A stretch of DNA of 32,000 nucleotides from Mucisphaera calidilacus (GTDB lineage Bacteria; Planctomycetota; Phycisphaerae; Phycisphaerales; Phycisphaeraceae), in the NCBI RefSeq assembly GCF_007748075.1, contig NZ_CP036280.1:3150001-3182000 (forward strand), read 5' to 3'. The notes below the pieces were generated by a model, which made no database searches, was not told the DNA's origin, and saw only the letters and a program-made list of their open reading frames with translations. Each line of letters begins with the position of its first letter. Within the stretch, counting starts at the first letter, position 1. Both the position numbers and the translations under genes were made by a program. Below, piece after piece: positions 9,754 through 20,431 of the stretch.

Positions 9754-10683
9754 TTGGCTGAGGCGACGATGCGGCGGGTTCGGATTGGTCATTCGCCTGA
9801 CCCGGATGACGCATTCATGTGGTATCCGCTGGCGAACTTCACGGGTCCGAGCGGAGAGGTTCACCGGCCGCAGATTGACACGGGGGGTTTTGCGTTCGAG
9901 CACGTGATGGAGGACATCGAGTCGCTGAACCAGCGGAGCGAGCGTGGTGAGCTGGAGGTGACGGCGTTGTCGATCCATCAGTTCCCTTATGTGGCGGATC
10001 GTTATGTGCTGACGAGTTGCGGGTCGTCGATGGGTGACGGTTATGGTCCGATCGTGGTGACGCCTGCGGATCGGGAGGGTGGTTCGCGGGATGACGGGGC
10101 GGTGAAGTGGCTCAAGGGCAAGCGTCTGGCGATTCCGGGTGTGCGGACGAGTGCGTGGTTGTCGATGCAGCTGCGTCTGGCGGAGGTGGGTCTGAGTGCG
10201 GCGGACGTGGACTGGTCGGTGGTGGCGTTTGACGAGATCCCGGATCGCGTGCTGGCGGGCGAGGCGGACGCGGGGTTGTTGATTCACGAGGGTCAGTTGA
10301 CGTATGAGAAGCAGGGTTTGCGTCTGGTGGAGGACCTGGGCAAGTGGTGGACCGACTCGCGTGGGCTGCCTCTTCCGCTGGGGGGCAATGCGATCCGCAA
10401 GGATCTGGGTGACGCGGTGGGTCCGTTGTGCGGGGTGTTGTTGGATTCGATCGAGTGGGCGCTGGAGCATCGGGCGGAGAGTGTGGGTTTTGCGTTGCAG
10501 TGGGCGCGGGGGATGGGCAGCGCGTTGGCGGATGAGTTTGTGGGGATGTACGTGAACGACTGGACGCTTGACTATGGCGAGCGTGGTCGCGCGGCGGTGA
10601 CGCGTTTTATTGAGGAGGGGGTGAGGGCGGGCCTGGTGCCTGACAAGGGCGCGGTGGCGTTTGCGGAGCCTGAGCGGGGCTAG
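9754..10683 (+). CDS. MqnA/MqnD/SBP-fold family protein (futalosine-pathway menaquinone biosynthesis-like)
   Basis: N-terminal RIGHSPDPDDAFMWYPL resembles the SPCPND-type motif of MqnD-like periplasmic-binding-fold enzymes. The TTG start at 9754 is preceded by AAGGAG (9741-9746) at 7-nt spacing. Confidence 0.65.
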   Translation: MAEATMRRVRIGHSPDPDDAFMWYPLANFTGPSGEVHRPQIDTGGFAFEHVMEDIESLNQRSERGELEVTALSIHQFPYVADRYVLTSCGSSMGDGYGPIVVTPADREGGSRDDGAVKWLKGKRLAIPGVRTSAWLSMQLRLAEVGLSAADVDWSVVAFDEIPDRVLAGEADAGLLIHEGQLTYEKQGLRLVEDLGKWWTDSRGLPLPLGGNAIRKDLGDAVGPLCGVLLDSIEWALEHRAESVGFALQWARGMGSALADEFVGMYVNDWTLDYGERGRAAVTRFIEEGVRAGLVPDKGAVAFAEPERG

Positions 10684-10717
10684 GGGTTTGTGCGTCTGCG
10701 GTTCTGCTCCGGTCGGG

Positions 10718-11326
10718 TCAGGGTGTGGTGGGGATTTGGGAGAGGGAGTGGTGTGATGGGGGTGTGTTGAAGTCGTTGGGGGTAAGGTTGCCGGTGAGGG
10801 TGTTGAGCTGGATCTGGGTGTCGGAGAGTTTCTGTCGGAGGGTGAGGGCTTGTTGTTCGGCGGCGCCGGCGGCGGAGCTGGATGACCAGAGCATGAGGAG
10901 GGAGAGGGTGAGGATGGAGGCGAAGATGGCGCTGGAGGTGAAGAAGAGTTTGCGGAGTCGCTGGTTCTGTTCGTTGAGGAGTCGGACCTTGTCGTGGGCC
11001 TCGTCGGTCTGTCGCTGAGCGAGGACGACGGCGGCGCCGGCGAGTCGCTGGTATCGGTGCGCCTCGGGTGCGTCGGAGGGTGCGGTGTCGGCGAGGAGGT
11101 CGCCTGGGGCGAAGGTCTGGGCGTGTTCGGGGTCGAAGAGTTGCTCGATGGCCTCTTCGGGTGAGTCGGGTGTGGTGGGCTCGTCGGCGGGTATCCGGAC
11201 TTTCTTTCGGCCGTCGGTTTCGACGCGGACGTCGAGCATGGATCGGGCGATGCGTCGTCGGATGGTGGAGGTGCTGACGCCCAGGGCCTGGGCGGCTTGT
11301 TGGATGGTGACCCAGGCTTGCGGCAC
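10718..11326 (-). CDS. Membrane-anchored DNA-binding protein with excisionase/MerR-type HTH, coiled coil and one TM segment
   Basis: N-terminus VTIQQAAQALGVSTSTIRRRIARSML (HTH_17/excisionase-like). A heptad-like segment RQTDEAHDKVRLLNEQNQRLRKL, the TM segment FFTSSAIFASILTLSLLMLW, then a second coiled segment. It starts 75 nt downstream of TerL. Confidence 0.7.
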   Translation of the reverse strand: MPQAWVTIQQAAQALGVSTSTIRRRIARSMLDVRVETDGRKKVRIPADEPTTPDSPEEAIEQLFDPEHAQTFAPGDLLADTAPSDAPEAHRYQRLAGAAVVLAQRQTDEAHDKVRLLNEQNQRLRKLFFTSSAIFASILTLSLLMLWSSSSAAGAAEQQALTLRQKLSDTQIQLNTLTGNLTPNDFNTPPSHHSLSQIPTTP

Positions 11327-11401
11327 GGGTTGGTCTCCCTGAGGTGTGTGTAGTGATGATTTCGGGTGGATCGGGTGTTGTGTTGAGCGTGTTGTCGGGG
11401 A

Positions 11402-12916
11402 TCAGTAGTTGATGACGGTCGCGGGTCGTGAGCCGAGGTCGAGGTTGACGATCAGGTAGCGGAGGGCGTCGGCGGCGTGGTCGGGTCCGTCCTTGACGGG
11501 TTCGAGGTGTGTGGGTCGTTTGTGGTCGAAGTGGTAGCAGGTGAGTGCGTGGATGAGGTGTGTGCATCGCGGGTCGATGTGGAGTCGGTCGTGGTCGATG
11601 TGGTTTCGGACGCGTTCGATGCCGTCGCGGATGCGGTGTCGGTGTGATCGGACGTTGAAGCCGTGGTCGCGTAGGAGGTCGATATCGGAGCGTCCGGTGT
11701 GGGCGTTGCGTGCGGAGCCGGCGGGGTCGACGGCGGCCCATCGCGGCATAGGGTGGGGTCGTGCGGTGATGCGTTGGATGTGTTGTCCGAGGGTGAGGTC
11801 GGTCTGGTGGTATTCGTCGATGACGTGGAGGGTGGTCTGGCCGAGGTCGTTGTAGGCGTGTGCGGCCCAGAGGAAGACGGTGGGTGATCGGAGTCCGAAG
11901 TCCATGCCGGCGACGAGGGTGTGGTTTTCGGACGAGGTGTAGGGTCGGACGTGTCGCGTGGGGTTGAAGGTGGGGTAGACGGCGTCGTCTCGTGAGGGTC
12001 GGTGGCAGAGCATTTCGGCGTGCCAGGTGGCGGTTGAGGTTCGTGCGTGCTGCTGGATGAGGTCGTCGATGGGGATGAAGCCGCGGGCGTTGCGTGCGCG
12101 TCCCTGACAGTCGGGTTCGAGTGGGCAGGTGTTGCAGGATCGTGAGGTCGGGCAGGGTTGTGCGGTGTCGATGGCGGACCATCGGAGTTGTTGTCGGTGT
12201 GTGGCGGCGGGTGTGGTGTTGTCGATGAGTGCGGACATGAGTCCGCCGGGCCGGTGAGCGGTGGAGAGTGCGTGGACGGAGCCGCGGACGAACCAGGGGC
12301 CGCATCGCCCGGAGCGTGTGGTGAGTTGTGCGGCCTGCCAGATGTCGTGTTGGAACTCTTCGACCTCGTCGCATCGGAGTCGGTGGACGCGTGTGCCGCG
12401 GACGGAGCGGTGTGACTGTGCGAGTATTTCGAGGGCGGAGCCGTTGGCGAGTGTGAGTCGTCGCTGGGTGGGTGGCTGGGCGAGGACGGAGTTGGTGGAT
12501 CCGGGTTTGGGGTGATGGAGCAGGGGTGTGTTGAGGAGCCGGAGCAGGTGGTGGTGCATGCGTAGGGATTGCTCGAGGGATCCGCCGAGGATGCGCAGCT
12601 GGAAGCCGGGTTTGAAGATGAGGTCGAGGAGTGAGGCGACGGCGCCGAGCAGGGTTTTTCCGCCGCCTCGGTTGGCCCAGACGACGATGTCGGCGGGTGC
12701 GTGGTGTTGGTGTCGTGCGGCGAGCTGGTCGGCGAAGAAGCTGCGGAGCAGGTATTGGAAGGGGGGTGATGCGTTGGGGGTGACGGCGTGTCGGGGGACG
12801 TTGAGTCCGAGTCCGACGCGGACGAATCGGTGGAGCTGGTCGGGTGTCTGGGGGCAGGCGGACTGGAGGAGTCGGAGTCGTGTGGAGGGTTTTCGTTGGT
12901 GGTCGTGGCGGGTCAT
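11402..12916 (-). CDS. Phage terminase large subunit (TerL)-like ATPase-nuclease
   Basis: Walker A VVWANRGGGKTLLGAV and Walker B RLRCDEVEEF. RNase-H-like nuclease motifs VAGMDFGLRSPTVFLW, VIDEY, AAVDPAGSAR and DGPDHAADALRYL. A Cys cluster CPTSRSCNTCPLEPDC lies between the two domains. The true start is the ATG at 12916, overlapping the upstream stop as ATGA. The 769-aa track ORF extending to 13711 is a shadow extension. Confidence 0.88.
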   Translation of the reverse strand: MTRHDHQRKPSTRLRLLQSACPQTPDQLHRFVRVGLGLNVPRHAVTPNASPPFQYLLRSFFADQLAARHQHHAPADIVVWANRGGGKTLLGAVASLLDLIFKPGFQLRILGGSLEQSLRMHHHLLRLLNTPLLHHPKPGSTNSVLAQPPTQRRLTLANGSALEILAQSHRSVRGTRVHRLRCDEVEEFQHDIWQAAQLTTRSGRCGPWFVRGSVHALSTAHRPGGLMSALIDNTTPAATHRQQLRWSAIDTAQPCPTSRSCNTCPLEPDCQGRARNARGFIPIDDLIQQHARTSTATWHAEMLCHRPSRDDAVYPTFNPTRHVRPYTSSENHTLVAGMDFGLRSPTVFLWAAHAYNDLGQTTLHVIDEYHQTDLTLGQHIQRITARPHPMPRWAAVDPAGSARNAHTGRSDIDLLRDHGFNVRSHRHRIRDGIERVRNHIDHDRLHIDPRCTHLIHALTCYHFDHKRPTHLEPVKDGPDHAADALRYLIVNLDLGSRPATVINY

Positions 12917-13335
12917 GGCTGGTCCTGGTGGTCGGTGTCTTCGTCGTCGTCGTGGGTGTAGAGGATTTCGCGGAGCTGCTGGGGTGTGAGGTTGTCGTCG
13001 TGTTGGTCGGGTGTGGTCGGCAGGTGTCGGTCGAGTTTGAGGAGGTCGACGCAGGCCTTGCGTGCGGTTTCGGAGTTGGTGGGTTCTTCGGCGGTGGCGA
13101 GGGTGAGCAGTCGGGAGGCGGCCATGAGTCGGCATCGTCCGAGGAGGAGTTGTGTCTGGAGGTCGGCGAGCGAGCAGAGGGCGCCGAGGGTTCGGAGGGT
13201 GTCTTCGCGTGAGGCCCATGCGGCGAGTTCGTGGGTGGAGAGTTTGTGGTTTTCGGCGATGCCGACCCAGTCGGACTCGGCGCGGATGAGGTCGGCGAGG
13301 AGTGCGCGGGCGCGGTTGCTCGACATCTTGCTCAT
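12913..13335 (-). CDS. Small helical acidic-tailed protein; positional candidate for a terminase small subunit
   Basis: 140 aa, translationally coupled to TerL (ATGA at 12913-12916). Helical composition with an acidic C-terminus DDDEDTDHQDQP. I recognise no motif; the function is inferred from position only. Confidence 0.55.
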   Translation of the reverse strand: MSKMSSNRARALLADLIRAESDWVGIAENHKLSTHELAAWASREDTLRTLGALCSLADLQTQLLLGRCRLMAASRLLTLATAEEPTNSETARKACVDLLKLDRHLPTTPDQHDDNLTPQQLREILYTHDDDEDTDHQDQP

Positions 13336-13350
13336 GGTGTTGGTCCCGGG

Positions 13351-14007
13351 TCAGTGGTTGTGCTGTTCGACGAGTTTCATGAGGGCGTCGGAGCGTGAGC
13401 CGCCCAGGGATCGGAGGGTCTGGTCGAGTCGTTGGCGTTGGGGTGGTGTGAGGAAGAAGTGGACGGCGAGGGTTTGTTGTTCGGGGGGTGTGGGTGGTTG
13501 GAGTCGTGGTTGGGTGGTGGTGAGTTGGATGAGGTGTTCTGCGGCGGAGCGGTCTTCGGGGAGCAGGGGTGTGATATCGGGGAGGGGGATGTGTCGGGTG
13601 AGTTGGGTGAGGAGTTGTCCGCGTCGGGTGGGGTTGTCGGAGCCTGAGAGTCGATTGAGGGTGGCGAGGTAGACGAGTGCCTGAGCGTCGTCGACGTCCC
13701 AGACGAGGCATCGTGCGTGGGTGTGGTTGAGTTGCTGGAGGGCTCGGCGTCGGTGGTGACCGTCGAGGATCTGGTAGGTGTTGCGGGTGAGGGGTCTGGT
13801 GATGATGGGCGGGTAGTGGCTGGTTTTGCTGATGTGTCGGGCGAGTTTGTCGATCATGCGTTGGCGCATGACGTTGGCGTTGTGGGGGTGTTGCTGGAGT
13901 TGTTCAAGCGGGATGTTGTGGAGCGTGTTGGGGGTTGATGTGGGCGTAGTAGACGGGTTCGACGAGGACGCGGGTGCGTGCGGTGTTGAGTTGTTGTGGT
14001 GTGTCAT
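13351..14007 (-). CDS. ParB/Sulfiredoxin (ParB N-terminal nuclease-like) domain protein
   Basis: NIPLEQLQQHPHNANVM...YPPIITRPL...YQILDGHHRRRAL matches the ParB/Srx N-terminal domain pattern, including DGHHR. The only in-frame canonical start upstream of the domain is the ATG at 14007. That start gives a 104-nt out-of-frame overlap with the GNAT gene. Confidence 0.75.
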   Translation of the reverse strand: MTHHNNSTPHAPASSSNPSTTPTSTPNTLHNIPLEQLQQHPHNANVMRQRMIDKLARHISKTSHYPPIITRPLTRNTYQILDGHHRRRALQQLNHTHARCLVWDVDDAQALVYLATLNRLSGSDNPTRRGQLLTQLTRHIPLPDITPLLPEDRSAAEHLIQLTTTQPRLQPPTPPEQQTLAVHFFLTPPQRQRLDQTLRSLGGSRSDALMKLVEQHNH

Positions 14008-14707
14008 GGTGTCGTCGTCCTCCTCGTCCGGCGTTCTGCTGGTACCAGCGTTGGACTTCCCGGATGAGGAAGTGTTGTGTGGCTGGCGGCCGGCGTTGGA
14101 TGTCCTGCCATAAGCGTGCGGGTCGTGCCAGGTCGGTGCGCACGAACCCGGCGTGTTCGAGGGCGTCGAGGAGTCGCTGGTCGCAGGGGAGGGGTGGTCG
14201 GGTGTAGGGGGTCATGCCGGCGTGCTGGAAGAAGGGGTTGATGCGTCCCATGGCGGCGAGGGCTTCGGTGACGGGTGTGGTGGCGGTTTCGAGGGCGTGT
14301 CGGACGAGTCGGACGGCGAGGCCGTTGCCTCGGAACCGGGGGTGGACGATGACGCGGCTGATGCAGCGGATTTCCTGGTTGATGAGTCGGGCGCGTTGTG
14401 CGGGTGGGAGGGTGTTGCCGAAGCGTTGGTTGAGGGCGTGGTCGCGGAGGTTGCAGGCGAGTGCGGGGAGGGACTCGACGAGGATGGCGGCGGGTTGCGG
14501 CCTGGGTGTGCGCGCGAGCCAGCGGTCGGCGGGTGAGGGGTGTGTGTGGAGGAGGGCAAGGATGCGTGTGGCGGTGGCGGGTTTGTCGGCGCGGTAGTGG
14601 AAGGGGGCGAGTTGGCGGAGGTGGTCCCATGTGCCGGTGGTGAGGGTGAGGGCGTTGTCGTGGGCGGCGGGGTTGTGGAAGCGTTGGCGTAGGGTGGTGG
14701 TTGTCAT
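13904..14707 (-). CDS. GNAT-fold N-acetyltransferase-like protein
   Basis: CISRVIVHPRFRGNGLAVRLVRHALE fits the GNAT acetyl-CoA-binding motif A (R/Q-x-x-G-x-G/A). 267 aa. The ATG at 14707 overlaps the ATPase stop as ATGA (14704-14707). Confidence 0.65.
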   Translation of the reverse strand: MTTTTLRQRFHNPAAHDNALTLTTGTWDHLRQLAPFHYRADKPATATRILALLHTHPSPADRWLARTPRPQPAAILVESLPALACNLRDHALNQRFGNTLPPAQRARLINQEIRCISRVIVHPRFRGNGLAVRLVRHALETATTPVTEALAAMGRINPFFQHAGMTPYTRPPLPCDQRLLDALEHAGFVRTDLARPARLWQDIQRRPPATQHFLIREVQRWYQQNAGRGGRRHHDTPQQLNTARTRVLVEPVYYAHINPQHAPQHPA

Positions 14708-15399
14708 CGTGTGAGGACCTCGGCCTGGTGGTGGGGTGTGAGGTGGACGAGGGTGTCGGGCTGGAGGGGTTCGAGGAGGTCGTCGTGGGCGGTGGCGATG
14801 ACGAGGGTGGCGTGCGTGGTTCGTGACCAGCGGTGGAGGGTTTTGGCGAGGTTGGCGGCGGTGGTTCGGTCGAGGGGTGCGGCGAACTCGTCGGCGGTGA
14901 GGAGGGTTCGGGTGTCGGGTGGTGTGTGTTGTGAGAGCGCGATGGCGTGGGCGAGTCGGAGTCGGAAGCGTTGGCCGACGGAGAGTTGCGCGGGTGTTCG
15001 GAGCAGGAGTGCGGCCTCGGCGAGTCCGGCGCGGGAGAGGGCGTGGGTGAGGGTGTTGAGGTCGTCGGGCAGGGGTTGGGGGAGGCCTTCGGCGAGGGGT
15101 CGGTCGGGCCAGGGCGGGAGGTGGTCGAGGTCGATGTGTCGGGTGTCGGGGTCGTGGTGCTTGAGTTGGGTGGTGAGTTCGCGGAGGAGTGTGGACTTTC
15201 CGGTGCCTGAGGGCCCGGTGATGAAGACGAGTTGTGCGGGCCGGAGGGTGAGCTGGAGGGGCGGGACGAGGGTGAGGGGTTGGGATTGGTCGGCGTCGAG
15301 GCCGAAGAGGGCGGCGGCGTGGGCGACGGCGGGTGCGTCGTGGGTTGTGGGGGTGACGGTGGCGTGGAGGTCGAGGGTGACAGGGTTTATCACTTGCAA
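14704..15399 (-). CDS. Stand-alone ABC-type ATPase (no permease partner)
   Basis: Walker A FITGPSGTGKSTLL, signature-like LSVGQRFRLRLAHA, Walker B TLLTADEFAAPLD and H-loop-like VIATAHD. The start is TTG 15399 or GTG 15393, the latter 8 nt after GGGAG. Confidence 0.75.
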   Translation of the reverse strand: MQVINPVTLDLHATVTPTTHDAPAVAHAAALFGLDADQSQPLTLVPPLQLTLRPAQLVFITGPSGTGKSTLLRELTTQLKHHDPDTRHIDLDHLPPWPDRPLAEGLPQPLPDDLNTLTHALSRAGLAEAALLLRTPAQLSVGQRFRLRLAHAIALSQHTPPDTRTLLTADEFAAPLDRTTAANLAKTLHRWSRTTHATLVIATAHDDLLEPLQPDTLVHLTPHHQAEVLTR

Positions 15400-15438: not shown

Positions 15439-15852
15439 TCAGAGTCGGGCGAGTGCTTTGACGACGCCCATGTGTTCGCGGACGCGGTGGAGGGAGATGC
15501 CGGTTTGTCGCGCGGTTTTGCGGAGGCTGTGGCCATGGAGCGCGACGGATTTCGCGGTGGGTCGGACGTCGGGCGGGAGGAGGTCGAGTTGCGTGGCGAC
15601 GAAGGCGAAGAGGTCGGAGTTGAGTCGGTTGAGGAGGTTTCGGAGTCGTCGCTGGACGGTTCTTGGGGGCTTATCGAGGAGTCGTGCGGTATCGGTGATG
15701 GTCATGCCATGGCGGTAGATCTGATCGAGGAGGAGTTGTTCGTGTCGTGGGAGGTAGGCGGCGCGAGCGAGGATGCGGTCGGCGTGGTTTCGCTGGCTGA
15801 CGCGAGCGTGCAGTTGTTTTTCGGTGGCGCGTTCGACGGTGGTTGCGGACAT
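15439..15852 (-). CDS. Small protein with two tandem sigma-70 region-4 / LuxR-like HTH domains (transcription activator or TerS-like DNA recognition protein)
   Basis: LPRHEQLLLDQIYRHGMTITDTARLLDKPPRTVQRRLRNLLNRL and LPPDVRPTAKSVALHGHSLRKTARQTGISLHRVREHM both fit the region-4 pattern. ATG at 15852 with GGGAGA 5 nt upstream. Confidence 0.7.
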   Translation of the reverse strand: MSATTVERATEKQLHARVSQRNHADRILARAAYLPRHEQLLLDQIYRHGMTITDTARLLDKPPRTVQRRLRNLLNRLNSDLFAFVATQLDLLPPDVRPTAKSVALHGHSLRKTARQTGISLHRVREHMGVVKALARL

Positions 15853-15895: not shown

Positions 15896-15923
15896 AGTAT
15901 ACGGCGGGTGGTCGTGCTGTCAA
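15896..15923 (-). promoter_or_regulatory. Sigma-70-type promoter for the module operon: -35 TTGACA, 16-nt spacer, -10 TATACT
   Basis: On the minus strand, TTGACA is at 15923-15918 and TATACT at 15901-15896. The predicted TSS is about 37 nt upstream of the ATG at 15852. Confidence 0.55.
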
Positions 15924-15936: not shown

Positions 15937-16002
15937 GATTATTAAACCCTGCATGAACATCGATCAAGTTAATTTATGATATCTTTACAATTTAGTGCTT
16001 AA

Positions 16003-16935
16003 ATGGGTCGGATTGATGAAGGGAGGTGTTGTTTGGCTGTTGGTGGGTCGTCGTCGGATGTGGGACTGGGGGAGTTGCTGCGTGGGTATCGTCGGGCGCG
16101 TGGTTTGAGTTTGTCGGCGTTGGCGGGGCGTTGTGGTGTGACGAAGGGGTATTTGTCGCTGATTGAGAATGGTCGTGTGGGCCGTCCGCCGAGCGAGCGT
16201 GTGGTGTCGTCGCTGGAGGAGGCGTTGGGGTTGACGGACGGGTCGTTGCGTCGTGCGGCGGCGTGGGCGACGACGCCTGAGGCGATCCGTGCGGAGGTGG
16301 ATCGTTTGCGTGCGGACGCGTCGTTTTCGCATCGATTGGCGCGGACGCTGCTTGCGGCGGGCGGCAAGTCGGGTGCGGGTCCGGTGGATCTGGATGCGTT
16401 GTACCGGGCGGGCGTGCTGGGACGAGTTACGTCGGAGGGTGCTGCCGGGGAGGATGCGGGGGGTGCTGCCGGGGGGAGAGCCGAGGGGGGAGCCGGGGGT
16501 GATTCCGGGGGTGCGATGCGTTTGTTGACGGAGGCGATGGCGGAGCGTGTGCCGCTGATCAATCGTGTGCCGGCGGGGTATCCGGCGGGTTTCACGGATC
16601 TTGGGTTTCCGGCGCGGGTGGCGGACGAGTATGTGCCTTGTCCGGGGGTGCGGGATCGTGACGCGTTTGCGGCGCGGGTAGTGGGTGATTCGATGGAGCC
16701 TGAGTACCGTGAGGGTGACGTGGTGGTGTTTTCGCCTGAGTCGGACGTGGTGGACGGGTGTGATTGTTTTGTGCGTCTGGAGCCGGACCACGAGACGACG
16801 TTCAAGCGTGTGTTTTTTGATGGAGAGGGTGAGGTTCGGCTGCAGCCTTTGAACCCGCGGTACCCGGCGCGGGTGTTGGAGCGTGAGCAGGTGGCGGGTT
16901 TGTACCGTGCGGTGTGGCGGATGTCGCGTTTGTGA
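16003..16935 (+). CDS. cI/LexA-type autocleavable repressor: XRE-family HTH + S24 peptidase domain
   Basis: HTH LGELLRGYRRARGLSLSALAGRCGVTKGYLSLIENG. VPLINRVPAGYPAGF aligns with the LexA cleavage-site strand (IPLxGRVAAGxP), with an Ala-Gly bond. Catalytic Ser in VVGDSMEP and Lys in TFKRV. The start is ATG 16003, or TTG 16033 preceded by GGGAGG (16021-16026). Confidence 0.85.
   Translation: MGRIDEGRCCLAVGGSSSDVGLGELLRGYRRARGLSLSALAGRCGVTKGYLSLIENGRVGRPPSERVVSSLEEALGLTDGSLRRAAAWATTPEAIRAEVDRLRADASFSHRLARTLLAAGGKSGAGPVDLDALYRAGVLGRVTSEGAAGEDAGGAAGGRAEGGAGGDSGGAMRLLTEAMAERVPLINRVPAGYPAGFTDLGFPARVADEYVPCPGVRDRDAFAARVVGDSMEPEYREGDVVVFSPESDVVDGCDCFVRLEPDHETTFKRVFFDGEGEVRLQPLNPRYPARVLEREQVAGLYRAVWRMSRL
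16438..16509 (+). repeat. Imperfect 24-nt in-frame tandem repeat (x3) encoding the Gly/Ala linker GAAGEDAG-GAAGGRAE-GGAGGDSG
   Basis: GGTGCTGCCGGGG occurs at 16438-16450 and 16462-16474. A third, degenerate unit follows. The tract is rich in CCGGGGG. Confidence 0.7.
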
Positions 16936-17099
16936 TGGGTTGTGCGCATGGGGCCTCCGGAGAGGCGTGCGGGTGTCGCGTCTGTGCGCACGGGCGGGCT
17001 AGGGATAACCCTGACTATCTTCGGATTCGGGGATCTGATATGTTATGTAAGTCTGCATTGATGCAGTGCCTGCAGGCCACGAGCTGGAGATGATTTCCG

Positions 17100-17855
17100 A
17101 TGGATGCGACGGCGGTGATCTGGATTATTGTGGCTCAGGCCATCGGTTTTCTGATGCAGGGGATGGTGGGTTTTGGCGCGGGTCTGATCATCGTGCCCAT
17201 CCTGGTGTGTGTGGGGATGGACGTTCCGATGGCGGTGGGAGCGTTGCTGGGTGGTGTGATGGTGGGTACGGGGCAGCGTTGTCTGCGTCGTCAGGAGGAT
17301 TTTGAGTGGGCGGACGTGTGGGCGTTGTCGTCGTGGCGGATGGTGGGGATTCCGGTGGGTGTGTGGCTGCTGGGTGTGCTGGTGGAGCAGTGGCAGCCGT
17401 CGCAGATCAAGCAGATGGTGGGTTTGCTGCTGGCGTTCGGGTTGCTGGCGATGTGGACGATGAAGGTTCAGCCGCGTGAGAAGGTGGGTCGTGGCTGGAC
17501 GGTTGCGGCGGGGATTTCGAGTGGTGCGTTGGGTGGTCTGGTGGGGATGAGTGGTCCGCTGGCGGTGATGTGGGTGATGGCGCACGACTGGTCGCCTGTG
17601 CGATCGCGTGCGACGTTGTGGGGGATTTTCTTCTTGTTCTCGCCGCCTGCGACGGCGGTGCTGGCGTGGCGTTTTGGTCCGGACGTGTTGTGGGCGTTCC
17701 TGGTGGGGATGTTGTGTTTCCCGGCGGTGGCGCTGGCGGATTTTGCGGGTGACCGGCTGGGTCGTCGTTTCACGAAGTCGGGTTTGCGTCGTGCGTCGTA
17801 CGGGCTGCTGGTGATCATCGCGTTGGTGGCGATGGTTGAGCCGTTGTTTGGTTGA
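17100..17855 (+). CDS. TauE/SafE (TSUP) family anion exporter membrane protein
   Basis: 251 aa and multi-pass. The N-terminus IWIIVAQAIGFLMQGMVGFGAGLIIVPIL is typical of the TSUP family, and an internal repeat carries GALGGLVGMSGP. Confidence 0.8.
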   Translation: MDATAVIWIIVAQAIGFLMQGMVGFGAGLIIVPILVCVGMDVPMAVGALLGGVMVGTGQRCLRRQEDFEWADVWALSSWRMVGIPVGVWLLGVLVEQWQPSQIKQMVGLLLAFGLLAMWTMKVQPREKVGRGWTVAAGISSGALGGLVGMSGPLAVMWVMAHDWSPVRSRATLWGIFFLFSPPATAVLAWRFGPDVLWAFLVGMLCFPAVALADFAGDRLGRRFTKSGLRRASYGLLVIIALVAMVEPLFG

Positions 17856-17866
17856 GGTGATGTATC

Positions 17867-18070
17867 TCAGGGGTTCAGTCGGCGGTAGTCGTCGGTCAGC
17901 ATGCCGGTGAAGCCCCAGTTCTCGGGGTCGACTTCGTCGATGATGATGTGGGTTTGTTCGGGTTTTTTGTCGAGGACTTCGACGAGTGTCTGCGTGATGC
18001 GTTCGACGAGTTCGCGTTTTTGTTCGCGGGTGACGCCATCGCGTGTGATTCGGACATTGACGTAGGGCAT
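17867..18070 (-). CDS. 4-oxalocrotonate tautomerase family protein
   Basis: MPYVNVRITRDGVTREQKRELVERITQTLVEVL has the obligatory Pro-1 after Met and the tautomerase beta-alpha-beta pattern. ATG at 18070 with GAGGAA upstream. The track start at 18112 would bury Pro-1. Confidence 0.85.
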   Translation of the reverse strand: MPYVNVRITRDGVTREQKRELVERITQTLVEVLDKKPEQTHIIIDEVDPENWGFTGMLTDDYRRLNP

Positions 18071-18360
18071 GGTGGGTTCCTCGGTGTGGTGAAGAACCGT
18101 GATCGTAGGCATGCTTCAAGCGGCTCGGCGGCGTCGGAGGAATGCGGGTGTGAGGGCGAGGAGTATGAGTGAGGCGGGTTCGGGGATTGAGGTCTGGCTG
18201 AAGTTGACGGCGAGAATGGAGAGGTCGAGGAGATCGACGGTGTTGTCGTGGTTGAAGTCGCCCTGGGTGTAGTCGAAGGTTCCGGGTTGGTTGTAGTTGA
18301 TGCTTAGGATATGGAGGTCGTAGAAGTTGACTATGCCGTCGTTGTTGACGTCGGCTGGAA

Positions 18361-18368
18361 GGGGGGGG
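18361..18368. repeat. G8 (C8 on the coding strand) homopolymer at the frame break
   Basis: Read directly as ctggaa-gggggggg-cttgtag. Seven or ten Cs would join the two reading frames. Confidence 0.9.
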
Positions 18369-19160
18369 CTTGTAGATGAAGGTCACTTCGCCTGTGGCCA
18401 TGAGGCTGGAGGTGTCGAAGGTGCCGGCATGGGTGTTGCTGATGATCTGGTCGAAGTTGCCGGTGATGTCGGCGTGGGTCCAGTCGAAGAGCTGGTAGGT
18501 GACGCCGTCGAGGAGGATCAGGTCGTCGAGGGTGAGGCCGTCGTCGAATTCGAGGAGGAGGGTTCCGGCGAGGGTGACGGGCGTGTCGAGTTCGGCGAAC
18601 TGGATCTGCGAGCCCCAATGATCGTCTTCGAAGACCATGCGGAGGGTAGCGGCGGGGTCGAGGGTGAGGTGCTGTTCGACGGTGATGGGGATGATGGGGT
18701 CGGATTCATCCCGTGGCGCGTAGTCCCAGACGCGGAGGGCCTGGTTGGCGAGGAGGACCATGCCCTCGACGTGGCCGTCGGGGTGGATGAGGTTGGTGGT
18801 GTTGGCGGCTGAAAGCAGTTGGTCGCTGGTCAACCCGGAGGAACCTCTTGTATCGGCATTGATGAAGTCGGCGTTGGTCAGGTTGGCGTTGTTGAAATTT
18901 GTGTTGGTCAGGTTGGCGTCGGTCAGCGTGGTATCTTCGAAGTATGCCTCGGTGAGGTTGGCGTTGGTGAGGTTGGCGTTGGTGAGGTCGACGTCGGTCA
19001 GCTTGGCAAACCAGAAGCCTGCTCCGGTGAGGTTGGTGTTGGTGAGGTTCGCATTGGTGAGCGTGGCGTGGTCGAAATCCGCGTCGGTGAGGTTCTGGTT
19101 GGTGAGGTCCCAGTCGGTCAGGTCGTTGTATCTGAGGCGCAGGCCCTGGAGGTTCTTGTT

Positions 19161-19931
19161 CTGGTAGCTGGCGGTGCTGTAGAGCTGGGCAGGGGTGAAA
19201 CCACGAGAGGTGGTGTGACTAAAACCTGCTTCGGTGATGAGAGCGTTGGTGAGGTCGGCGTCGGTGAGCATGGCATTGAAGAAGGACGCGTTGGTGAGGT
19301 TCTGGCCCGTGAAGTCCCAGCCGGTGAGATCGTTGTAGCCCAGATCCAGGCCACTGAGGTCTTTGTTCTGGTAGCTGGCGGTGCTGTAGAGCTGGGCTGC
19401 GGTGAAACCGTTATAGGTTGCATGAGCGAAGACCGCGTCGATGATGTTGGCGTTGGTGAGGTCGGCGTTGCTGAGTGTGGCACTATAGAAGAACGCCTCG
19501 GTGAGGTCGGCGTTGGTCAGGTCGGCGTTCGTCAGCGTGGCTCGGTAGAAGTCAGCGTCGGTGAGGTTCTGGCCTGCCAGGTTCCAGCCGGTCAGGTCGC
19601 TGTAGCCCAGATCCAGGCCGCGAAGGTCTTTGTACTGGTAGCTGGCGGTGCTGTAGAGCTGGGCTGCGGTGAAACCAGAATTGGTGGTTGAGCGGAAGTT
19701 CGCTTCCGCGATAACGGCGTTCGTCAAGTCGGCGTCGATCAGCGTGGCCCCGCGAAAGGATGCGTCGGTAAGGTTGGCGTTGGTGAGGTTGGTGTTGGTG
19801 AGGTCGGCGTAGTAGAAGTCTGCCCGTGTGAGGTTCTGATCGGAGAAGTCCCAGCCGGTGAGGTCGTTGTAGCCCAGATCCAGGCCACTGAGGTCTTTGT
19901 TCTGGTAGCTGGCGGTGCTGTAGAGCTGGGC
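19161..19931 (-). repeat. Long-period intragenic repeats (207/267/267-bp spacing) inside the pentapeptide-repeat gene
   Basis: The identical 30-mer ctggtagctggcggtgctgtagagctgggc starts at 19161, 19368, 19635 and 19902. The protein has four copies of GFT(A/P)AQLYSTASYQxKxLxGLxLxYxDLTxW, each followed by pentapeptide arrays. Confidence 0.85.
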
Positions 19932-20431
19932 TGCGGTGAAGCCGGAATCGGTGGTTGAGAGGAAGAACGCTCCTGTGATGAGAGCGTTGGTGAGATCGGC
20001 ATCAGTCAGTGTGGCTCTAAGCAGGAGCGCCTCGGTGAGGTTGGTATTGGACAGGCTGGCGTGGGTCAGGTCGGCTTGGAAGAGGTAGGCCTTGGTGAGG
20101 TCGAGGTCCTTGAGGATGGCGTTGGGCTCAGCCACGCGTCCTGCGCCATCGGGGGCGAGGGTGGTGGATCGCTGGCGGGCCAGACCGGGGTTTGCGGTGT
20201 CAATGTACTCCCACTGGTAGATATCGGCTTGTGCGGTGGTCGCGAGGGTGAGCGCGAGGGCGGCGAGGCCCCCGGAAGTCGAGCGTGTCATGGTGCTCTC
20301 TCCTGTGACGCTTCTTACAGAGTAGCACGATCAGGAGGCCAATCAATCCGAATCACAAGGTGTGGGCGACTTTGATCAGATTTGTGCGCATGGCACAGGG
20401 TGCCGGAAGGGGCTGAGCCGGGGGTGCGTGT

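Follow-up and report, generated by a model that had tools for sequence, protein, structure and literature searches.

The phage terminase is usually described as two subunits, TerS and TerL. In several groups of phages, namely the SSU5-like phage-plasmids (Cyrano, SSU5 and Klebsiella phages), Nickievirus and the Gordonia Sourvirus phages, tblastn searches and annotated records place homologous genes for an ABC-type ATPase and a GNAT-like protein next to ParB-domain genes, just upstream of the terminase genes; Rhizobium phages have a homologous ABC gene. The annotations attached to these genes, such as 'ABC transporter' or 'MK0520 ... ABC-type ATPase fused to a predicted acetyltransferase domain', have no basis other than similarity, and our literature searches returned no reported function for the phage ParB/ABC/GNAT modules or for their counterpart in Phycisphaerae. 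That counterpart is the subject of this study. We analyzed a 32,000-nucleotide (nt) stretch of the Mucisphaera calidilacus genome (the window; contig NZ_CP036280.1, positions 3,150,001 to 3,182,000), in which positions 13351 to 15399 hold a minus-strand run of three chained genes encoding, in this order, an ABC-type ATPase, a GNAT-like protein and a protein with a ParB N-terminal domain. We think it probable that these three are packaging-accessory genes of a phage-derived, repressor-controlled terminase operon that is fixed in most Phycisphaerae chromosomes. Positions given below are those of the window, except that the prefix C1 marks coordinates of the contig.

Among described systems, the element as a whole resembles RcGTA, the gene transfer agent (GTA) of Rhodobacter capsulatus and other Alphaproteobacteria, in which phage-derived packaging and head genes are likewise chromosomal, inherited vertically over a large clade, maintained by purifying selection, subject to host-type regulation and distributed over more than one locus. 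The two differ in that the RcGTA terminase lies inside the head-tail cluster, whereas a separate packaging operon with its own cI-like repressor is found here; the capsid gene of the Phycisphaerae element is of the SU10 type. The RcGTA gene set is not known to include ABC, GNAT or ParB genes. Literature searches returned no paper on a GTA in Phycisphaerae or other Planctomycetota.

A conserved operon joins the trio to a terminase

The operon consists of a helix-turn-helix (HTH) gene, the ABC ATPase, GNAT-like and ParB-like genes, a gene for a small protein and the gene for TerL, the large terminase subunit, with a cI-like repressor gene diverging from its upstream end. A chain of three genes with overlapping frames had been proposed in a preliminary description of the window; the open reading frame (ORF) coordinates and the sequence agree with it, and the superfamilies that it named are borne out by profile scores above the cut-offs. 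We scanned species-representative genomes with profiles at the species level, which gave 226 matches, whereas a scan of genome contigs with a single sequence gave none. Synteny was counted in the best 80 loci. The ABC, GNAT and ParB genes occur in the same order and on the same strand in 74 of them; of the six remaining loci, four are truncated by a contig end. This arrangement is far beyond chance, and it settles decisively in favor of the trio the point on which the preliminary description had been ready to abandon it, namely that it might not be syntenic in any other genome. The order repressor, HTH, ABC, GNAT, ParB, small protein and TerL recurs in 15 loci, and the host gene adjoining TerL is often the same and is conserved in several genera. 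Of 41 genomes from the same taxonomic order, 29 carry the GNAT gene, each in one copy. A class-level sample of 251 Phycisphaerae genomes from 184 genera contained it in 181 genomes (134 genera) and TerL in 159; 151 genomes had both genes, 30 had GNAT only, 8 had TerL only and 62 had neither (Fisher p = 7e-27, uncorrected for phylogeny).

The ratio of nonsynonymous to synonymous substitutions (dN/dS) was 0.08-0.33 for ABC, GNAT, ParB and TerL (Nei-Gojobori method, 8 species pairs), and the catalytic motifs are invariant among the aligned orthologues of the four proteins. We conclude that the element is domesticated, vertically inherited and under purifying selection. Like a domesticated GTA, it is fixed and vertical and is found without integrase or replication genes. 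The same data bear on the idea that the operon is a prophage remnant in decay, with genes that have lost their function. Such a remnant could be expected from the lack of adjacent integrase, replication and structural genes, from the few relatives in which TerL is split or frames contain stops, and from one metagenomic copy in which TerL is interrupted by an insertion; the frames are nevertheless intact in ~150-180 genomes of the class, the low dN/dS values and invariant catalytic motifs apply to them, and synteny and the neighboring host genes are conserved. The selection and conservation data effectively refute a dead remnant, and we regard this explanation as exceedingly improbable. A recent prophage was also ruled out. 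Ordinary host genes flank the operon at both ends, and the module is present in one copy in the 3.49-Mb genome; the operon shares the extreme strand skew of its surroundings, with GC skew uniform over the window and of host type, and the synteny is class-wide.

The phage modules resemble the Mucisphaera operon in several respects. Their ABC proteins are 34-36% identical to the operon ATPase in BLASTP comparisons (36% for those of Cyrano and nickie) and their GNAT-like proteins 23-26% identical to the operon protein (over the full length for nickie gp10, over residues 20-174 for Cyrano_122). PHROGs 293 and 886 are shared, a ParB-domain gene is adjacent, and the module lies directly upstream of the small and large terminase genes. 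In Gordonia phage AnClar (gp82, gp1-gp4), ABC and GNAT are fused in gp2, as they are in the fused Phycisphaerae families described below. The phages differ in being free phages with adjacent head genes, with two ParB genes before the ABC gene and with extra HNH and methyltransferase genes; in Mucisphaera, ParB follows GNAT, and the operon is chromosomal, repressor-controlled and apart from the head genes. The author of the preliminary description did not recognize the three genes together beside a terminase, but homologous modules precede the terminase genes in SSU5-like, Nickievirus and Gordonia phages. Between the fused ABC-GNAT gene and TerL, AnClar carries at 2312-2962 a gene annotated as 'tRNA-methyltransferase', which would fit a nucleic-acid-modifying role.

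Viral contigs were also searched. The GNAT profile gave no match in them, the TerL profile matched 10 contigs, none of which had the full module, and IMG/VR held no close relative of the operon. One entry filed as viral, IMGVR_UViG_3300034175_000195, carries a short GNAT gene and, after it, the gene for a TerL orthologue that is cut off at about residue 291; the genes beyond are unrelated, one of them encoding a primase/helicase-like protein, and phage structural genes are absent from the contig. It looks like a copy of the bacterial operon, with GNAT and TerL of the Phycisphaerae type, that was interrupted by an inserted element.

Families with and without ParB

The composition of the operon varies among families of the class. 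In f1, f4, f5, f8, f10, f17 and f24, the GNAT protein is full length with a C-terminal helical domain and the operon ParB is present; the small protein was seen in f1, f4, f5, f17 and f24 and not in the f8 and f10 loci. In f2, f7 and f12, GNAT consists of the core only (about residues 20-170/207), and both the operon ParB and the small protein are absent, the sole ParB match in f2 being an ordinary chromosomal ParB. GNAT is also core-only in f19, where the operon ParB is absent and the small protein is present in one of two genomes. Across the class, the constant unit is thus ABC, the GNAT core and TerL, and ParB occurs only where GNAT bears the C-terminal helical domain. The ParB gene co-occurs with this domain, which suggests that ParB acts through it.

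The commonest junction between the ABC and GNAT genes is ATGA (18 of 74 loci). In f7, f12, many cluster representatives and Gordonia phage gp2, ABC and GNAT are encoded in one frame of ~400-550 amino acids (aa), and these natural fusions argue that the two proteins act as one enzyme. TerL has an obligate companion in the ABC and GNAT pair, and ParB is an adaptor that is optional and goes with the C-terminal domain of GNAT. In one genus, a full-length GNAT gene was found alone on a contig other than that of TerL, and TerL was matched in two pieces; the system in that genus may be rearranged or decaying.

A portal and capsid locus without a terminase

The TerL gene lies at 11405..12916 on the minus strand (Terminase_6C 1.8e-8; TerL PHROGs down to 6e-19). 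It is preceded at 12913..13335, in the position of a small terminase gene and on the same strand, by the gene for an acidic protein of 140 aa (pI 5.0) that is syntenic in most relatives and whose stop codon overlaps the TerL start as ATGA; profile searches with the 140-aa protein gave no family match. The best phage relatives of TerL are T5-like and, at ~25% identity, uninformative. Four cysteines of TerL (C255, C261, C264 and C270), located between the ATPase and nuclease domains, are invariant in 27 aligned orthologues and may form a zinc-binding insert.

Elsewhere on the contig we found a head locus (C1:3200595-3203633), ~39 kb from the operon and ~34.6-37.6 kb beyond window position 16000. 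It encodes an SPP1-type portal protein at C1:3200595-3202016 (SPP1_portal, 3.5e-14) and an SU10-type major capsid protein at C1:3202449-3203633 (4.6e-90), and no terminase gene lies beside this portal/capsid locus. When the presence of TerL and of the capsid gene was compared in 41 genomes, both were found in 27 and neither in 10, with TerL alone in 3 and the capsid gene alone in 1 (p = 2.6e-6, uncorrected for phylogeny). The TerL operon and the head locus lie 10-130 kb apart on the same contig. Because the operon is co-inherited with a portal/capsid locus that lacks a terminase, it would represent one half, that for packaging, of a particle system of phage origin whose genes are divided between two loci. 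This co-occurrence suggests a split, domesticated, GTA-like element.

The ABC-type ATPase

The gene for the soluble ABC-type ATPase occupies 14704..15399 on the minus strand (ABC_tran 3.2e-10; phrog_293 4.2e-23). Its true start is more likely GTG 15393 than TTG 15399, as judged from the sequence: GGGAG precedes GTG 15393 by 8 nt, the spacer before TTG 15399 is just 2 nt, and the orthologues start near GTG 15393. The protein matches ABC_tran (PF00005) with 41.2 bits against a cut-off of 25. It has a Walker A motif (GPSGTGKST), a signature motif (LSVGQRFR; pattern LSxGQRxR), a Walker B motif (LLTADEF) whose DE includes the catalytic Glu, and an H-loop (ATAHDD), and these motifs are kept in 74 aligned sequences. 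The closest solved structures are LolD, FtsE and MJ0796. By these motifs and matches, the ATPase is classed with the transporter nucleotide-binding domains and not with the Rad50/SMC or OLD type, which answers the question of sub-class raised in the preliminary description; the SMC_N score of 24.3 bits is under the cut-off of 40, and no Toprim or coiled coil, as expected of the SMC/Rad50/RecF/OLD-type defence ATPases GajA, PtuA and AriA, accompanies it. No gene for a permease or other transmembrane partner was found in the operon here or in relatives, in agreement with the ATPase having been described as permease-less. It thus does not belong to a complete ABC transporter, and its neighbors are the GNAT and HTH genes.

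Defence systems are known to include soluble ABC ATPases, GNAT toxins and ParB-like nucleases, and the ATPase had been compared in the preliminary description with the sensors of Gabija, Septu and PARIS. In an anti-phage defence or abortive infection system, the ABC ATPase would sense infection, and the GNAT and a ParB-like nuclease would be the effectors. A moderate PADLOC match of the ATPase to mad3 (1.7e-14, generic for ABC proteins) and the repressor control of the operon would fit such a system. However, PADLOC gave no convincing match to Gabija, Septu or PARIS; the ATPase matches to PtuA (6e-3), LmuB (5e-4) and ATPase-Toprim (1e-4) are confined to the P-loop, those to PtuA, LmuB and AbiL are at noise level, nothing was returned for GNAT, and ParB had only a weak methyltransferase match. 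The ABC protein is of the transporter type, of the LolD/FtsE/MJ0796 kind, the trio always forms one chain with TerL and is inherited together with the portal and capsid genes, and the homologues are phage genes beside terminases. In addition, the module is single-copy, is vertically inherited across the class and keeps its chromosomal surroundings, whereas defence islands are patchy. We consider a defence function quite improbable, and the sensor assignment is not upheld.

The GNAT-like protein

The second gene of the trio (13904..14707, minus strand) encodes a basic GNAT-fold protein of 267 aa (Acetyltransf_1 1.1e-4; phrog_886 1.1e-10). Its ATG (14707-14705) overlaps the ATPase stop codon (14706-14704), the two forming ATGA at 14707-14704, just as the preliminary description had it. 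The protein also passes the profile match on which its assignment had been made to depend, with 22.9 bits for Acetyltransf_1 against a cut-off of 20.7, although the match covers motif A only. The core comprises about residues 20-170, a helical C-terminal domain follows at about 174-247, and the last strand contains EPVYY. Motif A is RFRGNG (residues 124-129), in which R126 and G129 are invariant among orthologues. The AlphaFold2 (AF2) model has a predicted local distance difference test (pLDDT) score of 90.9, and 26 GNAT structures match it at E<=1e-3 in Foldseek. These features place the protein in the GNAT acyltransferase superfamily, with acyl-CoA binding and transfer as predicted activities.

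The top Foldseek matches are Kre33/NAT10 and TmcA (9g33, 9b0e, 9aym, 6zqb, 2zpa), followed by malonyl-CoA decarboxylase, arylalkylamine N-acetyltransferases, phage Mu Mom and AtaT/KacT. When solved structures were searched with a profile made from the GNAT alignment, only marginal GNAT matches appeared (E >= 0.045), and ~1190 cluster representatives match the GNAT protein at E<=1e-3. The protein has a net charge of +17 (orthologue median, +14.5) and many invariant arginines. Taken together, the fold neighbors NAT10/Kre33, TmcA and Mom, the basic charge and the invariant arginines are indications of a nucleic-acid substrate.

AtaT and KacT are among the fold matches (E ~1e-3), and the preliminary description had raised the possibility of a toxin. 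In a TacT/AtaT/KacT-type system, the GNAT would acetylate aminoacyl-tRNA, and the strand-helix-helix at the ParB C-terminus, which resembles ribbon-helix-helix (RHH) antitoxins, would serve as the antitoxin; the very basic character of the GNAT would be in keeping with this activity. Type II GNAT toxins have ~160-180 aa, however. This protein is longer, at 267 aa, and carries additional parts at both termini, and in fold it is nearer to NAT10 and TmcA, its best matches, than to AtaT/TacT. The gene order is the reverse of that in GNAT/RHH pairs, with the ABC ATPase and not an RHH antitoxin gene ahead of GNAT, and Pfam detected no RHH in the ParB C-terminus. Moreover, GNAT is kept in lineages without ParB, which would be lethal for a toxin that had lost its antitoxin, is fused to ABC in many lineages, and is vertically inherited as one copy per genome. 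AtaT/TacT/KacT toxins and the Gabija, Septu and PARIS ATPases share superfamilies with the trio (the GNAT fold and P-loop ABC, respectively) but differ from it in size, architecture, gene order, copy number, phyletic pattern and neighbors, and profile searches did not assign the trio proteins to these families. The toxin assignment was therefore dropped, and we judge it very improbable.

The ParB-like protein and its start codon

The third gene of the trio (13351..14007, minus strand) encodes a protein with a ParB/Srx N-domain (ParB_N 5e-8; phrog_723 2e-14). The score for ParB_N (PF02195) is 33.3 bits against a cut-off of 26.3, over residues 28-112. The motif DGHHR (40 orthologues) and the motif LNRLxGxD are invariant, and the C-terminus has a conserved strand-helix-helix that may be a dimerizing or DNA-binding element. 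In the AF2 model (pLDDT 89), the N-terminal extension (residues 1-28) scores ~60 and is predicted to be disordered. Noc was the best Foldseek match (1.4e-9), followed by ParB of Myxococcus, Bacillus and Caulobacter, PadC and KorB. On this evidence, the protein is assigned to the ParB/Srx superfamily, the arginine motif GxxR (box II) being present, with NTP (CTP, ATP or GTP) binding or nuclease activity as candidate functions. The NTP specificity of ParB/Srx proteins is not predictable from the conserved motif residues (PMC12704722). With no parA nearby and a TIGR00180 score of 33.8 bits (cut-off, 58.45), the protein is not assigned to a ParABS partition system. An ordinary, longer chromosomal ParB, distinct from that of the operon, is encoded at C1:3129891-3130322, ~20 kb before the window.

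The start of this gene had been placed at ATG 14007, the only canonical start available, 104 nt inside the GNAT gene. Our analysis agrees with this: ATG 14007 is the sole ATG, GTG or TTG that the open frame offers ahead of the conserved first ParB strand, and a ParB gene starting there shares 104 nt with the GNAT gene, read in the +1 frame. A putative Shine-Dalgarno sequence, GAGGAGG (14025-14019, minus strand), lies 11 nt upstream of ATG 14007, built inside GNAT codons, and stands out because this strand contains very little G. The sequence thus favors ATG 14007 as the best ParB start. The overlap (13904..14007, minus strand) would be dual-coding, for the GNAT C-terminus including the conserved EPVYY and for the ParB N-terminal extension. 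In most relatives, ParB starts 4-10 codons before the conserved strand IPLxxLxxHPxNxNVM, and the GNAT and ParB genes usually overlap by 4 nt or are separated by a short gap (median, +8 nt). The sister species has an overlap of 56 nt because its GNAT has a longer tail; it has GGCCGCTCCGGCC at the place matching GAGGAGG, and a later ATG is used. An overlap of 104 nt was found in this genome only. From this comparison, the proximal ParB start appears to have been lost here and the upstream ATG, with a newly formed ribosome-binding site, to be used instead, so that ParB would gain an extension of 28 residues.

These results divide the earlier proposal that the coupling of the three genes implies fixed stoichiometry or a complex. 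Class-wide synteny and ABC-GNAT fusions support the view that the genes work together. In contrast, the long overlap does not stand as a designed coupling, and the short junctions in relatives argue that the 104-nt overlap is no sign of special stoichiometry. A GNAT-ParB fusion made by programmed frameshifting was rejected, as the orthologues are separate genes with their own starts and a strong ribosome-binding site precedes ATG 14007.

ParB-like proteins have been described as activators of phage thymine dioxygenases (5mYOX), in pathways that neighbor terminases in 19% of cases (PMC13229309), and fusions of the ParB-CTPase fold to acetyltransferases exist (PMC12704722). The operon resembles the 5mYOX/ParB systems in having a ParB/CTPase-fold partner of a putative nucleic-acid enzyme and in the same closest structural homologues, the ParB proteins of Myxococcus and Caulobacter; it differs in that the partner is an ABC-GNAT pair and not a dioxygenase, and in that ParB has its own C-terminal strand-helix-helix. 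The dependence on ParB is inferred here from its co-occurrence with the GNAT C-terminal domain only.

A regulatory role for the trio was also weighed. A ParB-like protein of the KorB/IbrB kind, together with ABC and GNAT, could control late gene expression or determine when packaging takes place, for instance if it activated the distant head locus or gated TerL, with the GNAT acting on a protein (TerL, the small protein, the portal or RNA polymerase) or doing no more than bind acyl-CoA as a metabolic signal. The ParB fold fits the KorB and Noc switches, the first operon gene encodes a sigma-region-4-like HTH protein, the unlinked head locus needs coordination, and many GNATs acetylate proteins; ParB-like proteins can also be non-catalytic activators (PMC13229309). 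On the other hand, the conserved ABC catalytic motifs and GNAT motif A argue for enzyme activity, the strongly basic GNAT favors a polyanionic substrate, four families have no ParB, and the module precedes TerL also in lytic phages whose head genes are adjacent. We therefore regard a regulatory role as unlikely, while giving it some weight.

A possible role in packaging

If the trio serves packaging, as we favor, the following sequence of events can be envisaged. Inactivation of the repressor, for which RecA-stimulated self-cleavage is plausible in an S24 repressor, would lead to expression of the operon, and TerL, aided by the small protein, would package DNA into capsids encoded by the head locus, in the manner of a GTA. 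An ABC dimer and the strongly basic GNAT would form an ATP-driven acyl-CoA transferase, with a logic analogous to that of TmcA/NAT10, in which a GNAT domain is powered by an ATPase module to act on nucleic acid; the target of the transferase would be either the DNA under packaging or a packaging protein. The ParB-like protein would be an NTP-binding switch of the Noc/ParB/KorB type that binds to the C-terminal domain of GNAT and keeps the enzyme on DNA or directs it there, a role comparable to that of the phage ParB-like activators of DNA-modifying dioxygenases. Since the module has been kept through domestication, when genes directed against the host would be expected to be lost, its role may be intrinsic to packaging or to the particle DNA and not one of host takeover. 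The specific mechanism of nucleic-acid acylation, taken by itself, is tentative and lies between doubtful and possible. We put forward as a speculative proposal, itself unlikely, that ABC-GNAT is an unrecognized ATP-driven acyltransferase that marks the DNA or the motor covalently in headful packaging, with an optional ParB clamp, and that it serves both phages and a class-wide GTA-like system.

TmcA and NAT10 (Kre33), which are ATP-dependent RNA cytidine N4-acetyltransferases, also couple a GNAT to an ATPase and have a basic surface suited to nucleic acid, but only the GNAT part aligns with the operon protein, with template modeling (TM) scores of 0.33-0.37 and E ~1e-4, and their tRNA-binding domain is missing here. 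The operon protein is thus not placed in their family, and the comparison is an analogy of logic.

Several observations weigh against the packaging interpretation. The Foldseek matches of GNAT are weak (E 8e-5 to 1e-3, TM 0.3-0.4) and include unrelated GNATs, so that 'TmcA/NAT10-like' is a lead and no classification; the ATPase of TmcA/NAT10 is RecD/helicase-like and part of the same chain, and the ABC domain here is unrelated to it. ParB is dispensable, given its absence from four families (f2, f7, f12 and f19), the first three of which also do without the small protein. The phyletic statistics are uncorrected for shared ancestry. The 30 genomes that have GNAT without this type of TerL belong mainly to f9 and f21 and carry fused, more distant GNAT-like proteins, and the wider GNAT family occurs in other contexts too. 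As for the head locus, its genes beyond portal and capsid are without assignment, the five ORFs after the capsid gene having no PHROG match, and the best phage relative of the capsid protein, that of Sporosarcina phage Lietuvens, comes from a phage with no ParB/ABC/GNAT module.

An enzyme pair of ABC and a basic GNAT, often with a ParB-type switch, is chained to TerL in most sampled genomes of the class, and homologues of the pair occupy the same place in well-known phages, where they are mislabeled 'ABC transporter'. This points to a conserved, unstudied step in DNA packaging or in the marking of packaged DNA that laboratory phages can test. The operon also provides the packaging genes that the particle locus of phage origin lacks, and the two loci together would be a GTA-like system. 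What is new is therefore the combination of a phage packaging module and a putative GTA-like domesticated element with an uncharacterized, widely conserved terminase companion.

Other features of the locus

The repressor gene (16003..16935, plus strand) encodes a cI/LexA-like protein with an XRE-type HTH and an S24 peptidase (Peptidase_S24 4e-18; HTH_31 1e-13), and it is divergent beside the operon in most relatives. A second S24 protein, of ~211 aa and distinct from the operon repressor, is encoded at C1:2938978-2939334 and is probably the canonical LexA; the operon repressor would therefore be a dedicated one and not the sole LexA-like protein of the genome. A promoter-like site on the minus strand (15896..15923), TTGACA and TATACT separated by 16 nt, matches the consensus at 11 of 12 positions; two such sites were seen in the region, with 0.3 expected. 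The first operon gene (15439..15852, minus strand) encodes a basic protein (pI 11.6) with a sigma-70 region-4-like HTH (Sigma70_r4_2 1.5e-7; HTH_23) and is syntenic in relatives. The last (10718..11326, minus strand), found in some relatives only, encodes a protein with a MerR/excisionase-like HTH (HTH_17 and MerR, weak; phrog_2474 2.6e-6) and a hydrophobic segment.

Over the entire window (1-32000), the GC skew ranges from +0.23 to +0.50, an extreme strand asymmetry independent of gene direction, and 50-kb bins swing between about -0.28 and +0.35 genome-wide. Minus-strand proteins are rich in H, T, P and Q and plus-strand proteins in G, V and R. The bias yields very long spurious ORFs, such as 11402..13711 and 10680..12374. 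An ORF of 1082 aa (17043-20291, minus strand) starts with pentapeptide repeats and turns into R/H/P/T-rich nonsense from about residue 640, which suggests a frameshift inside this gene.

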